A stretch of DNA of 44,487 nt from a virus (Duplodnaviria > Heunggongvirae > Uroviricota > Caudoviricetes): positions 1 through 44,487 of the IMG/VR virus record IMGVR_UViG_2718218131_000009, one strand, 5' to 3'. Each line of letters starts with the position of its first letter. Position 1 is the first letter of the stretch. The position numbers were made by a program, and so were the translations under genes. Under the pieces are notes generated by a model, which did not search any database, was not told the origin of the DNA, and worked only from the letters and a program-made list of their open reading frames with translations. Below are positions 32,665 through 36,899 of the stretch, piece by piece.

Positions 32665-33158
32665 TAAGCCCCCACGTAATTCCCTGACAGATACCACTCT
32701 TCACCCGATGCAGCGCGCTTGCTGCTTTTCCGTAAGCACCGCTCACGACGCGCCAGAAAATTGTTTCGTTCTGGCTGGGAGTGGCTTTCACGGAATGCCG
32801 CCATCCACACGGTTGCAGCACGACGGTATAAGCCCCTGGACTCCAGTTCTTCAGCCTGGCGGGTCAGGCACAAAATCACCCGTGGATCGTTAGTGCCGAC
32901 ATAGAAATTGCGCACAGGTCTGGTTTCTCGAACTGGTTGTGGTTCCGGTTCCTGCGCTCTCTCAGTCAGGCGCGGGAAATGTCTGCGTGTATCTCCTTCA
33001 CAACGGTGAGCCACACGCCCACTCTGACGTAACTTGCTTGCTGACTGCAGAACGCGCTGCCGTGAGTAACCTGCAAAAGCATCCGCAATGTCTCCGGAAG
33101 TACACCCCGGATGGGCTTCAATGAATTTCTGAACTTCATTCAAAAGACTCATGATCAC
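32664..33158 (-). CDS. PerC-family-like regulator with N-terminal extension
   Basis: The C-terminal region EELESRGLYRRAATVWMAAF matches the PerC/Pch signature (ELEskGLWRRAA..W). Confidence 0.6.
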   Translation of the reverse strand: MIMSLLNEVQKFIEAHPGCTSGDIADAFAGYSRQRVLQSASKLRQSGRVAHRCEGDTRRHFPRLTERAQEPEPQPVRETRPVRNFYVGTNDPRVILCLTRQAEELESRGLYRRAATVWMAAFRESHSQPERNNFLARRERCLRKSSKRAASGEEWYLSGNYVGA

Positions 33159-33973
33159 CCCCTGAATCCTGCCGGGATCTGGCTGTAGTCCACGTTGTCG
33201 TAACTGGCTTTGAAGTACGGGTCCTCACGTCTGGCTGCAGATACCGCAGGAACTTCCCAGGATTCTTCGAAATGACGATCCGGACCAAAGAACGTGACAG
33301 CCTGTTTCACAAATTGTGTGCCGCTGTTACCCATCGCAGATACCCAGCCCGCGTAGCGTTTCACACCTTCCAGCATGGTTTCGGGGTTTACCCCCTCATT
33401 CAAACGGGCTTTCCAGGCTTTGAAGGCTGCAGATTTTGAATTACCACCAGCACGTTTGGGATATGCCAGCCATGCCTGCTCAAACTCCGGAGAGTATTCC
33501 GGCCGGTTTGAACGAACTCGCACGGACTCATCAACTGATGCACCAACAGCTATTGGTTCATTGACTGGTTCTTTGACTGGTTCAAAAGAGTGACTGGTTC
33601 TGGGTGAATCTCCTGCACTACCCCCTGGTGCAACTCCTGCACTACCTGGTGAATTTGCTGCACCAGATAGTGAATTATTTGCACTACCCCCTAGTGAATC
33701 TCCTGCACCATCCAGATGAAGGAGATAGGTATTACTTGAGTTACCTTTTTCACCTTTCCGGGTGACTTTTTTTACCAGCCCGGACTCACAAAGGGCCGCA
33801 ATATGATTCATCACAGAACGTTTGCTAATCTCGCACTGGTCAGCAATATGCTGGTAGCTGGGCCAGCACTCACCCTGATCGCTGGCATTATCAGCCAGCT
33901 TGATCAGAACCAGTTTTCGCAATGGATTACCCACTCGAATTTTCATCGCTTTAACCATCAGCTCCATACTCAT
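33155..33973 (-). CDS. Replication initiator (O-like, N-terminal winged HTH)
   Basis: N-terminal HTH (SYQHIADQCEISKRSVMNHIAALCESGLV), a low-complexity linker encoded by iteron-like DNA repeats, and a C-terminal domain. ATGA coupling to both neighbours. Confidence 0.7.
   Translation of the reverse strand: MSMELMVKAMKIRVGNPLRKLVLIKLADNASDQGECWPSYQHIADQCEISKRSVMNHIAALCESGLVKKVTRKGEKGNSSNTYLLHLDGAGDSLGGSANNSLSGAANSPGSAGVAPGGSAGDSPRTSHSFEPVKEPVNEPIAVGASVDESVRVRSNRPEYSPEFEQAWLAYPKRAGGNSKSAAFKAWKARLNEGVNPETMLEGVKRYAGWVSAMGNSGTQFVKQAVTFFGPDRHFEESWEVPAVSAARREDPYFKASYDNVDYSQIPAGFRG
33560..33700. repeat. Iteron-like direct repeats inside the replication gene (candidate ori)
   Basis: Three copies of TGACTGGTTC, two of GTGAATCTCCTGCAC and two of CTGCACTACC within about 140 bp. 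Confidence 0.5.
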
Positions 33974-34194
33974 GCTGCACCTCCGAGATGCTTCATGTTT
34001 TTTCCGGAGCGAAAGGCTATAAGCGGCATACTGACGCGGTAATTACGGCCCAACGGTTCACAAATCACTTTCTGACATTCACGGTCAACCAGGCTAACAC
34101 GTAGAACATGCCCTGCAGGCGTGGTGTACCACTGGCCCGGACGAGGACAACGGAAAGTCTGATTGGTAAACCGTTTGAAAATATTCCGGATCAT
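33970..34194 (-). CDS. Hypothetical protein (74 aa)
   Basis: Translationally coupled (ATGA overlaps) to both the Rha-domain gene and the replication initiator. Confidence 0.5.
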   Translation of the reverse strand: MIRNIFKRFTNQTFRCPRPGQWYTTPAGHVLRVSLVDRECQKVICEPLGRNYRVSMPLIAFRSGKNMKHLGGAA

Positions 34195-35342
34195 TTGCGC
34201 CCCCTTACCTCTGAAGGGTTCAGTGACAGATTTATGAGACTGGCCAGTACCGCCGCGTCGTTGATGCGGTCATACAGACTTATAGCCAGCGGGGATTCGG
34301 CTTTTGCCAACATGGGATAAAGCTGCTGCAGCCAGACTTTGTGGATTACCGACAAGTGGGAGTAAAGCACGCTGGCGTTATGTGCGGCATCGCTCAGCGT
34401 GGATGGCCTTGAAAGCTGCTTTTCCATCTGGTTAAAGGCATTGATGTATGCCTCTTTGAACTGGGCAGCACGTTTCCCCGTGAAACCCATAGCAAGAAAC
34501 GCAAAGCCGTCGCGGGTTATTTGATAGCAAGGTAGTTTGCGGCCTGTGCAATCGGTGTAATCACTCACCGAAAAATTGCGGGCAGTGAATGATGCGGAAC
34601 ATTCAAGCGTGCGGATCTTTTTCAGTACATCGTCATGACGTTTGGAGAAGAAGTTGGCAACAGCCAGGGATGAAGTAACAGCCTGACCATCAACGATGGC
34701 AATTTCAGGTTGAGTGAGGGTTGGGATCGTAGCCATGATGGCAGCCTCTTTGGTGATTTTTAATAACTCACCACCAAGGCTTTCCACGACCTTATTGGTG
34801 GTGAGACGTACAGGGGTGGAAATACCGGTCACCAAAGAACCCGGCCCAACCGAAGTTGGCCCTGCACGCCCCACCATAATTTGGGCGTAATGCTGCTCAT
34901 GACACAAAAAAACCGCAAGAGCGCGGTTGTGCGCTTTGGTGAATTCCGGGTTTCCACGCCCGGCACCCGCTTTATAAGGTGCCTGAACAGTGTAACGTCC
35001 CGGAATGGCAGAATCAATGTGCTGGTGGTCCTTCACACTCAACAAAATCACGCCTGAATTTCCACAAAGGACTAAAGCACTCATGCGGGTAGTCTTTGCG
35101 AAGATAGATAACGCGCTGCGTTTCTGGCTCCCAACGAATAACATGGACATAAAGCCCTCTTCCGTCACGAAACCAGCGGTTAAGTTCCTGCACAACTCGC
35201 CCCCCACAGTCAGGTAAAGTTCTCTGTGGTTACTTACAGCCAGGTGATTTGGTAATCTGCATTCATGCCGTAACAACAGGTGTTCAGCGACGCTGACCAC
35301 CAGCTGTTGCGACAAACGGTTATTTGCCGTTAAACTGTTCAT
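34191..35342 (-). CDS. Rha-family regulatory domain protein with ~200-aa N-terminal region
   Basis: C-terminal half (from M203, ATG at 34736) is IPTLTQPEIAIVDGQAVTSSLAVANFFSKRHDDVLKKI, a Rha domain. The upstream 202 codons are in frame and begin with an ATGA overlap to the CII-like gene. Confidence 0.6.
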   Translation of the reverse strand: MNSLTANNRLSQQLVVSVAEHLLLRHECRLPNHLAVSNHRELYLTVGGELCRNLTAGFVTEEGFMSMLFVGSQKRSALSIFAKTTRMSALVLCGNSGVILLSVKDHQHIDSAIPGRYTVQAPYKAGAGRGNPEFTKAHNRALAVFLCHEQHYAQIMVGRAGPTSVGPGSLVTGISTPVRLTTNKVVESLGGELLKITKEAAIMATIPTLTQPEIAIVDGQAVTSSLAVANFFSKRHDDVLKKIRTLECSASFTARNFSVSDYTDCTGRKLPCYQITRDGFAFLAMGFTGKRAAQFKEAYINAFNQMEKQLSRPSTLSDAAHNASVLYSHLSVIHKVWLQQLYPMLAKAESPLAISLYDRINDAAVLASLINLSLNPSEVRGRK

Positions 35343-35902
35343 GCGTTAGTTTCTCCACAGACACAAAACGCCACGACGCCCGGAGCTGCACACTCGCGGG
35401 CGTCACTCTTTTCTGGAGCGCAAAAGATTTTGTAGACCAGTGCTGCATGCTCCTGGAGCTTCGAAATTGACAGATACAACTCATCATTAATTGCTGTCTG
35501 CTCGTGTGGCTCCACTACCCCGTCTTCGATTGCCGAACGAATCTGCTTTGAGTAACTCCCGATCTGTTCGATGACTTCCAGCAGGCGCTGGTTTATATCG
35601 GCGTTCTCTACTTCCTCAATTTCAGGAAGCGATACAAACACCCCACCAGCAGACTGTGCGACAGCATCCGCAATGTAGTGAGTGCCAGCCGCGCGCTGTA
35701 AAATCATTGCCCATCCCAGCGGGAAAATCTGATCGCCATCTGCACGAAGGCGGTTGAATAAAGCGTTCTCTGTTACATCCAGCCACTCAGCAGCTTCAGC
35801 GTACCCCCCCGGCAACGCCGCGATAGTTTTTCTGACAGCTTTCACGTACCACTCAGGCTGTTTTTCTACTTTCCAGTGATGCTTACCCACGGTTAGCCTC
35901 AT
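35339..35902 (-). CDS. CII-like regulator (YdaT family)
   Basis: 187 aa, downstream of the cro-like gene in the rightward operon, matching the YdaS/YdaT arrangement of the Rac prophage. Confidence 0.65.
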   Translation of the reverse strand: MRLTVGKHHWKVEKQPEWYVKAVRKTIAALPGGYAEAAEWLDVTENALFNRLRADGDQIFPLGWAMILQRAAGTHYIADAVAQSAGGVFVSLPEIEEVENADINQRLLEVIEQIGSYSKQIRSAIEDGVVEPHEQTAINDELYLSISKLQEHAALVYKIFCAPEKSDARECAAPGVVAFCVCGETNA

Positions 35903-36224: not shown

Positions 36225-36899
36225 ATGAAAACAGTCCATGACATCCGGCGGTCTAACGCCAGAAAACTGAGAGATGGTGTTGGCGGGAATTCTTCCTTTG
36301 CCACCATGATTGATCGCGAGCCAACCCAGACCAGCAGGTTTATGGGAGATGGTGCTACTAAAAATATCGGTGACAGCATGGCACGGCACATCGAAAAATG
36401 TTTCGACCTGCCTGTCGGATGGCTTGATCAAGAACACCAGACAACAAACATCACAAAAAAACCTGATGTTTCAATTACTAACAAACAAATAACGTTAGTC
36501 CCTGTCATATCATGGGTACAGGCCGGAGCATGGAAAGAAGTTGGCTATTCTGAGGTTGATTTGAGCACAGCAGAAACGTATCCCTGCCCTGTACCCTGTG
36601 GCGAAATGACTTATATCTTGCGGGTGATTGGTGATTCAATGATTGATGAGTACCGCCCGGGAGACATGATTTTTGTAGATCCTGAAGTCCCTGCCTGCCA
36701 CGGTGACGACGTTATTGCATTGATGCACGATTCAGGCGAAACCACCTTCAAGCGGTTGATAGAAGATGGAACACAGCGTTATCTCAAAGCATTAAACCCA
36801 AACTGGCCTGAGCCTTACATTAAGATTAACGGTAATTGCTCTATAATTGGTACAGTGATTTTCTCGGGAAAACCAAGAAGATACACAATAAAGGCCTAA
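36225..36899 (+). CDS. CI-type repressor (HTH plus S24 LexA-like peptidase domain)
   Basis: C-terminal VIGDSM Ser nucleophile and TFKRL Lys. N-terminal HTH ending in PVGWL. Confidence 0.85.
   Translation: MKTVHDIRRSNARKLRDGVGGNSSFATMIDREPTQTSRFMGDGATKNIGDSMARHIEKCFDLPVGWLDQEHQTTNITKKPDVSITNKQITLVPVISWVQAGAWKEVGYSEVDLSTAETYPCPVPCGEMTYILRVIGDSMIDEYRPGDMIFVDPEVPACHGDDVIALMHDSGETTFKRLIEDGTQRYLKALNPNWPEPYIKINGNCSIIGTVIFSGKPRRYTIKA

Follow-up and report, generated by a model that had tools for sequence, protein, structure and literature searches.

In the lambdoid phages 82, phi80, 434 and 21 and in the Stx phage 933W, as in lambda, the replication origin lies inside the open reading frame (ORF) of the initiator, in the linker that joins a type-specific N-terminal DNA-binding domain to an exchangeable C-terminal one; it comprises several dyad-symmetric iterons in helical phase, with the expected opening region on their 3' side, and the N-domain and the iterons are inherited together. 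Phage SPP1 (G38P/oriL) and the lactococcal phages TP901-1 and Tuc2009 have initiator-binding repeats within the initiator coding sequence as well, and their initiators carry DnaD-like winged-helix N-domains. For lambda the architecture of the origin is set out in PMC5043065, where it is also described that opening occurs at short tandem repeats and that, in some plasmids, the initiator contacts one strand of these repeats sequence-specifically. Here we analyse IMG/VR virus record IMGVR_UViG_2718218131_000009 (Caudoviricetes; the whole stretch of 44,487 nucleotides is hereafter called the window), in which the segment 33554-33708, located in the interdomain linker of a phage initiator gene, shares each of the points given above for lambda and is probably the replication origin of this temperate phage.

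Two families of short repeats lie within codons 88-140 of the 272-amino-acid (aa) initiator ORF, between its winged helix (aa 1-84) and its helical C-domain, and Tandem Repeats Finder picks up both arrays, with scores of 77 and 55. The first family consists of five 15-bp cores on the minus strand (consensus GTGCA-N5-TkCAC) that extend over 33604-33708 with start-to-start spacings of 24, 21, 21 and 24 bp. All five fit a dyad in which a 5-bp spacer separates two 5-bp arms that are inverted relative to each other (5-5-5), copy 4 perfectly. An earlier note on this DNA, made from its letters alone, had placed a cluster of short direct repeats at 33560-33700, in the low-complexity linker of an O-like protein. 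The cluster is real, resolves into the two families and reaches about 8 nt beyond each of these coordinates; its position in the linker agrees with the codon numbers, with the HTH_36 and PHROG 270 matches of the protein, and with the AlphaFold prediction of disorder for residues 90-156 (predicted local distance difference test, pLDDT, below 50).

Five copies with at most four mismatches in 105 bp are far above chance, given that a single such match is expected at about 1e-4 per position; for a core match with at most two mismatches we estimate an analytic expectation of ~0.08 per window. Elsewhere in the window, on both strands, only one 15-mer comes within two mismatches of the core (32987-33001). 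This site is kept in 33 of 45 related loci, yet it is within a conserved coding region, and it is an uncertain candidate for a sixth iteron, its retention being indistinguishable from ordinary coding conservation.

The sequence of the iterons varies among relatives while their layout does not. Direct repeats were found in the linker of all nine diverse homologues inspected, from phages of E. coli, Salmonella, Klebsiella, Aeromonas and Vibrio, although the linker peptides (GAGDS, PSDKMSP, STPVPPE, GGAGAA, IAGDG) are wholly different between the nine, and the repeat sequences likewise. An exact-pattern scan of viral contigs for the element that all of them share downstream of the array gave at least 120 loci, which represent 25 repeat lineages. 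Sites of 15 bp with the 5-5-5 structure are present in all 25, as GTGCA..TGCAC, GTGAA..TGCAC, GTGTA..TACAC, GTGAC..GTCAC, TGCCA..TGGCA, TAGGC..GCCTA or GGGCA..TGCCC, and over the lineages 126 dyad sites were observed against 38 expected from shuffles. Every lineage has its sites at the same offsets from the conserved element (-20, -44, -65/66, -86/89 and -107/110), the last one standing at -20 relative to ACCAGTCAC in 25 of 25; the first spacing is always 24 bp and the others are 21-23 bp, of which those of 22 and 23 bp shift the reading frame.

The translation of these sites changes accordingly from one gene to another. The exact 15-mer of the window is read as GAGDS here and as VQEIH in another lineage (L016), and in reverse complement (GTGAATCTCCTGCAC, read as ESPA) it occurs in L072, L105 and many Pseudomonas prophages. 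Because its sites are spaced 22-23 bp apart, Escherichia phage mEp044 (L214) has its iteron GTGACACAGAGTCAC in two reading frames within a single gene (positions 284-366), as VVTQSH and as SDTESP. Judged from these comparisons, the constraint on the iterons acts on the DNA and not on the peptide, because the same 15-mer is used in other frames and in the opposite orientation and because some spacings shift the frame. The number of copies is more variable: near-identical initiators of E. coli and Shigella prophages, with proteins of 242-302 aa, have 1, 2, 5, 7, 8 or 9 iterons (homologues P0001, P0003, P0021, P0028 and P0042, together with L001, phage cdtI, and L023), the two-iteron form (250 aa) being present on 64 contigs. 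The comparison with related prophages proposed in the earlier note has in this way returned one array layout with fixed offsets and lineage-specific sequences, shared by more than 100 homologous initiator genes of Gammaproteobacteria and of their phages.

Differences between the half-sites follow differences in the protein. In Mantel tests the distance between half-sites correlates with that in the recognition-helix region (rho 0.42, p about 2e-4), and is uncorrelated with aa 1-45 (rho 0.02) and with the wing (rho 0.12). The recognition helix is predicted, from the AlphaFold model, to be aa 50-63 (SKRSVMNHIAALCE). Helices with the motif S[KRE]R[ST][VA]..H pair with GTGNA half-sites, those with SKSAVR or SKTSVR with TGCCR, DRSTVR with TAGGC, and [SG]RSTVK with GGGCA; a helix ending in MRH pairs with GTGAC in two motif groups, VibD67 (CDKRTAMRH) and a group of three loci (ISKRSVMRH). 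Because dyads, fixed offsets, DNA-level constraint and helix co-variation are found together, we regard the repeats as the predicted binding sites of the initiator, very likely those of the domain encoded just upstream of them.

The second repeat family belongs to an element of ~38 nt, CAGAACCAGTCACTCTTTTGAACCAGTCAAAGAACC, which directly abuts the last iteron and is common to all homologues. Its GAACCAGTCA unit is present two to four times among relatives. The conservation of this element was measured on pairs of homologues sharing the same degenerate amino acid, by asking whether the same codon is used. Among the nine phages codons are identical in 95% of such cases in the element and in 41% in the N-terminal domain; among 63 genome loci, with a locus GC of 38-61%, the figures are 91.3 and 38.5%. 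These 63 were drawn from 80 loci picked by N-terminal peptide motifs alone, which keeps the DNA pattern from biasing the sample; among the genera represented are Pseudomonas, Shewanella, Aeromonas, Xenorhabdus, Marinomonas, Avibacterium and others. The element is present in 80 of the 80, in 69 with at most four mismatches in 29 nt, and the rest have what by eye appear to be small (~3-nt) indels. It is unchanged whichever gene comes next, be it for a DnaB-type helicase, a primase-helicase or neither, and in mEp044 its AACCAGTCA core is kept in another reading frame. On the lineage average it is also, by a modest margin, the least stable 30-bp window within 450 nt (61% AT, -1.26 versus ~-1.43 kcal/mol per bp), and at the 60-nt scale the lowest GC is 0.40-0.43, with the adjoining element at ~60% AT.

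These properties suggest an unwinding or helicase-loading element. Beyond this we would tentatively propose, as a possibility that we rate below even, that the GAACCAGTCA element may be a sequence-specific initiation element of the whole phage-initiator family across Gammaproteobacteria, read, perhaps as single-stranded DNA, by a host factor that is conserved or by that part of the HTH_36 N-domain which is invariant. If this were true, opening and loading of the host helicase would proceed without an AT-rich DNA unwinding element (DUE) and, in this phage, without a phage-encoded loader; origin specificity, held in the variable iterons, would be separable from opening, held in the invariant element; and studies of DNA opening by initiators would have in the family a natural swap series.

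The boundary of the conserved segment is also a boundary of inheritance. In tblastn searches many phages share only aa 1 to ~140 of the initiator and others only aa 142-272, the latter in phages with unrelated N-domains. As the N-only homologues stop at aa 136-142 and the C-only homologues begin at aa 142, inheritance is in two modules, as in lambda O: one comprises the DNA-binding domain together with the iterons and the element, the other the C-domain. Two initiators with unrelated N-domains and the same C-domain as the 272-aa protein are the Eru7 O gene product of the Stx2a phage Stx2_14040 (L211, 1330-1500) and that of phage Evi (L212, 1150-1240). Both have the same linker layout, with dyad repeats (GGGAAACCC... 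or TGTCACG..GAGTCACGA) and then a tandem run of three to four AT-rich 12-mers, CAGAGAATACAA or ACAGATAAAGAT. Since Eru7 O and Evi have their 12-mers in the corresponding place, an opening or loading function of the 12-mers gains support, and phage initiator genes with an embedded origin may generally be built in this way, with iterons followed by tandem 12-mers.

The initiator itself is assigned as such by family. It matches the Pfam family HTH_36 (PF13730; aa 17-67, E 1.8e-11, 44.1 bits against a cut-off of 25) and, over its full length (aa 3-271, E 8.9e-88), the PHROG 270 profile "replication initiation protein." The Pfam scan, run at E<=0.01, returned in addition DnaD_N (E 3e-5, below its cut-off), B-block_TFIIIC and HTH_20, and no match to Phage_rep_O (PF04492). 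AlphaFold models aa 1-84 with pLDDT 80-92, placing helices at 39-46 and 50-63 and wing strands at 66-72 and 78-84. All Foldseek matches of the model are winged-helix proteins, including the DnaD N-domain 2v79, with weak E-values (~1e-2), and nothing more specific than a generic winged helix was confirmed as a fold relative. The C-domain is helical from aa 160 onward, with pLDDT of 57-74, a moderate confidence that is too uncertain for naming a fold; it has no Pfam family match and no relative in the PDB by sequence search. The PHROG profiles 1701 ("DnaD-like helicase loader") and 9327 ("primosomal protein") match aa 145-249, and the C-domain presumably recruits the replication machinery.

The sequences show the anatomy of the locus, the constraint on both repeat families as DNA, the co-variation of iterons and helix and the exchange of the C-domain. 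We infer that the initiator binds, that the strands open at the 12-mers, that a helicase is recruited and that the segment acts as an origin, along the following lines. On derepression the 272-aa initiator would be made, and its N-terminal winged helix, probably as dimers, would bind the five 15-bp dyad iterons of the GTGCA-N5-TGCAC type. Because the iterons are about two helical turns apart, the bound proteins would lie on one face of the DNA and could form a complex resembling the lambda O-some. The resulting stress would be relieved in the adjoining GAACCAGTCA 12-mer element, the least stable stretch nearby, in place of the AT-rich tract of lambda, and the C-terminal domain would then bring in a helicase. 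As the phage encodes neither helicase nor loader, this would have to be that of the host, DnaB, with DnaC or primosome factors.

Several observations weigh against the segment being an origin. Neither a composition scan nor a nearest-neighbour stability profile revealed a strongly AT-rich tract of the lambda kind; the adjacent AT-rich unwinding element that the earlier note had advised looking for is not there, and the element of 12-mer repeats, only ~60% AT, stands in its stead. When lineages are taken singly, the least stable 30-bp window within 450 nt falls at +20 to +68 in only 6 of 24. No TTATCCACA (up to one mismatch), TTWTNCACA or WATCAANNNNTTR occurs in 33000-34300, so that a consensus DnaA box or IHF site is absent from this region; phage origins, that of lambda for one, do not depend on such sites. 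A cluster of GATC sites was not found in the proposed origin either, and GC skew gives no origin signal in the window, where it tracks gene orientation and is lowest near 36 kb, at the cI/cro divergence. Shared ancestry can account in part for co-variation between linked loci, and because close relatives hold from one to nine iterons, either copy number is weakly constrained or some copies are in decaying prophages. To be set beside these points are the dyads, the spacing by two helical turns, the lineage specificity, the co-variation with the helix and a conservation of DNA that is independent of frame and orientation. Together they support the earlier suggestion that the array is probably the prophage replication origin, and the parallel with lambda, whose origin is inside O, extends to the location of the array at the junction of exchangeable N- and C-modules.

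The same observations bear on three other explanations. The repeats could be true initiator sites that serve autoregulation, copy control or incompatibility, through roadblock or titration, while the origin lies elsewhere. Plasmid iterons also serve control and incompatibility (PMC5043065; pIGMS31 preprint), there is no pronounced AT-rich tract beside the array, and an extra iteron-like site lies 597 nt downstream; we nevertheless consider this quite unlikely, since no other repeat cluster or AT-rich candidate is found near the replication genes, position and layout agree with the lambda origin, and the array is never seen apart from the conserved 12-mer element and the N-domain module. A control role and an origin role are, besides, mutually compatible. 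Very improbable, in our judgment, is a by-product of slippage in a slippage-prone Gly/Ser/Ala linker, with selection acting on a flexible peptide and the DNA having no role: the predicted disorder of the linker would suit it, as would the changes in repeat number among close relatives by whole units or by 66- and 90-bp blocks, but the peptides diverge between lineages while the DNA keeps its 5-5-5 dyad at fixed offsets, identical 15-mers recur in other frames and in the opposite orientation, and half-sites track the recognition helix, a pattern that slippage alone does not predict.

It is also conceivable, though we think it rather doubtful, that the iterons are origin sites and the GAACCAGTCA element is something else, namely a recombination junction between the N- and C-modules, an mRNA-level signal, or a peptide motif (RTSHSFEPV) that binds a partner. 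The element is exactly at the module breakpoint, is only ~60% AT and encodes a peptide that is conserved too. However, a synonymous conservation of 91-95% is beyond what a peptide motif alone explains, and the AACCAGTCA core survives the change of frame in mEp044. For an mRNA-level signal, the only Rfam match at a permissive threshold was to a miRNA, by chance, and single-strand folding of the region is unremarkable (z = -0.87), which also makes a single-strand initiation (ssi) or hairpin-type signal unlikely. As a recombination junction the element would have to be maintained by selection for evolvability alone, a weak force. The tandem units vary from two to four, as do protein-binding or DUE repeats, and AT-rich 12-mers stand in the same place in families whose N-domains are unrelated; both speak for a role of the element in opening or loading. 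The coordinates of the origin components and of the genes around them are collected in Table 1.

Table 1. Features of the proposed origin, its initiator gene and the adjacent early region (coordinates are those of the window)
Feature	Coordinates	Strand	Remarks
Replication initiator gene, 272 aa, O-like, HTH_36 family	33155-33973	minus	Contains the whole proposed origin
N-terminal winged helix-turn-helix domain, aa 1-87	33713-33973	minus	AlphaFold model, Foldseek
Exchangeable C-terminal domain, aa 141-272	33155-33553	minus	tblastn, PHROG profiles
Iteron 1, GTGCAGGAGATTCAC	33694-33708	minus	4/5 arm positions complementary
Iteron 2, GTGCAAATAATTCAC	33670-33684	minus	
Iteron 3, GTGCAGCAAATTCAC	33649-33663	minus	
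Iteron 4, GTGCAGGAGTTGCAC	33628-33642	minus	Perfect 5-bp inverted arms GTGCA/TGCAC
Iteron 5, GTGCAGGAGATTCAC	33604-33618	minus	Abuts the conserved element directly
Nucleotide-conserved element CCAGAACCAGTCACTCTTTTGAACCAGTCAAAGAACCAGTCAATGAACCA, encodes RTSHSFEPVKEPVNEP	33554-33603	minus	Codon identity, 80-locus sample
GAACCAGTCA units	33591-33600, 33574-33583, 33562-33571, and partial GAACCA 33554-33559	minus	Spacing 17, 12, 12
Isolated iteron-like site GTGAAGGAGATACAC, 2 mismatches	32987-33001	minus	Inside the PerC-like gene, 597 nt downstream of the element
cI	36225-36899	plus	
cII	35339-35902	minus	In the early region; a cro-like gene lies between cI and cII in gene order
Rha/Ash regulator	34191-35342	minus	Mechanical ORF of 383 aa

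ORF, Pfam and PHROG annotation identify the minus strand around the initiator as the early region of a temperate phage, in the order cI, cro-like gene, cII, Rha/Ash, a 74-aa ORF and the initiator, followed by genes for PerC-like, Dam methylase, LexA-like, RusA, KilA-N and DUF968/HNH proteins. Neither Pfam nor PHROG annotation yields a helicase, helicase loader or P-type gene downstream of the initiator or elsewhere in this phage. PHROG profiles align to the Rha/Ash ORF only from residue 61 or residue 106 onward, and for this reason its true start codon is probably downstream of the first ATG. A promoter scan gave nothing within the initiator gene, and a terminator-like hairpin at 33750-33765 is on its non-coding strand. 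Two short alternative-frame ORFs cross the iteron array (33550-33684, minus strand, and 33604-33765, plus strand; 44 and 53 aa); they are rich in HQ-, LH- and V-repeats, and the VQEIH frame of one of them is that used by initiators of other lineages, but most simply they are by-products of the repeats. At the other end of the window, positions 1-4100 form a block of low GC (32-35%, against ~52% elsewhere) that includes a plus-strand ORF at 673-4077 for a full-length DUF4765 protein of 1134 aa (Pfam E = 0), and the block looks like foreign cargo at the prophage end.

The initiator is widespread. A full-length copy is present in 896 of 5426 complete E. coli genomes, about one in six, where PGAP annotates the gene only as "helix-turn-helix domain-containing protein." Near-identical genes are found in Stx2c and Stx2a phages, mEp460, Ayreon, cdtI and SfV (orf39), and the copy in ST64B (sb42) has 88.8% identity. 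The gene in Stx2a_WGPS2, the Eru6 reference phage, has 98.5% nucleotide identity, and the initiator module is that of the Eru6 replication type among Shiga-toxin phages. A plasmid search was considered as independent proof of replicon function and set aside, as it returned mainly phage-like circles of 40-45 kb and not dedicated plasmid replicons. Among plasmid records, NZ_CP148393.1 (E. coli, 44,611 bp; H141) has the initiator at 99.3% identity and is about the size of the window; rather than a true plasmid it probably represents the circular genome of a phage, assembled as an episome.

In the searchable literature we found no description of an origin in this Eru6 module, a statement that leaves older subscription papers on SfV, ST64B, Sf6 and HK620, which might mention the repeats, outside its scope. 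As far as the sequences tell, what is new here is probably an origin embedded as in lambda and belonging to the HTH_36 family of initiators, whose iterons are of the 5-5-5 type and whose 12-mer element is invariant. A defined origin would offer a handle on prophage induction, on the amplification of toxin genes, on the incompatibility of co-resident prophages and on annotation. The comparative series, with at least seven classes of half-site each matched by a helix motif, amounts to a ready-made recognition code for a winged-helix initiator, and an unusually conserved element that is not AT-rich, at the site where opening is expected, bears on the question of how initiators melt DNA.

The Eru6 region of Shiga-toxin phages (PMC8951638) has the same gene set as this locus, and the Eru6 reference phage also has a Rha/Ash gene, next to cI. 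Fagerlund et al. (2022; PMC8951638) defined the Eru classes by gene content only, reported nothing known about the replication proteins of Eru phages, and described no origin. With SPP1, TP901-1 and Tuc2009 the locus has repeats within the initiator gene in common, whereas hosts, repeat sequences and partner proteins differ, and the relation is seen only as the sub-threshold DnaD_N match and the similarity in fold to 2v79. The iteron plasmids RK2, pSC101 and R6K, and oriC, resemble it in that an array of initiator sites adjoins a few short tandem repeats of 12-13 nt. In those origins the repeats are AT-rich 13-mers, whereas here they are 12-mers of ~60% AT; plasmid iterons bind monomers, whereas the sites here are dyads; and this locus lacks a DnaA box and an IHF site. 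The closest parallel in design is lambda, from which the locus differs in its parts: the initiator is of the HTH_36 (PF13730) family instead of Phage_rep_O; the iterons are 15 bp (5-5-5) instead of 19 bp; the 40-bp strongly AT-rich tract is replaced by the invariant GAACCAGTCA 12-mer element, shared by lineages with different iterons; and the gene that follows is not that of a P-type loader, its place being taken by PerC-like and Dam methylase genes. The design is thus lambda-like and the family a different one, with no Phage_rep_O domain, no AT-rich tract and no P gene.

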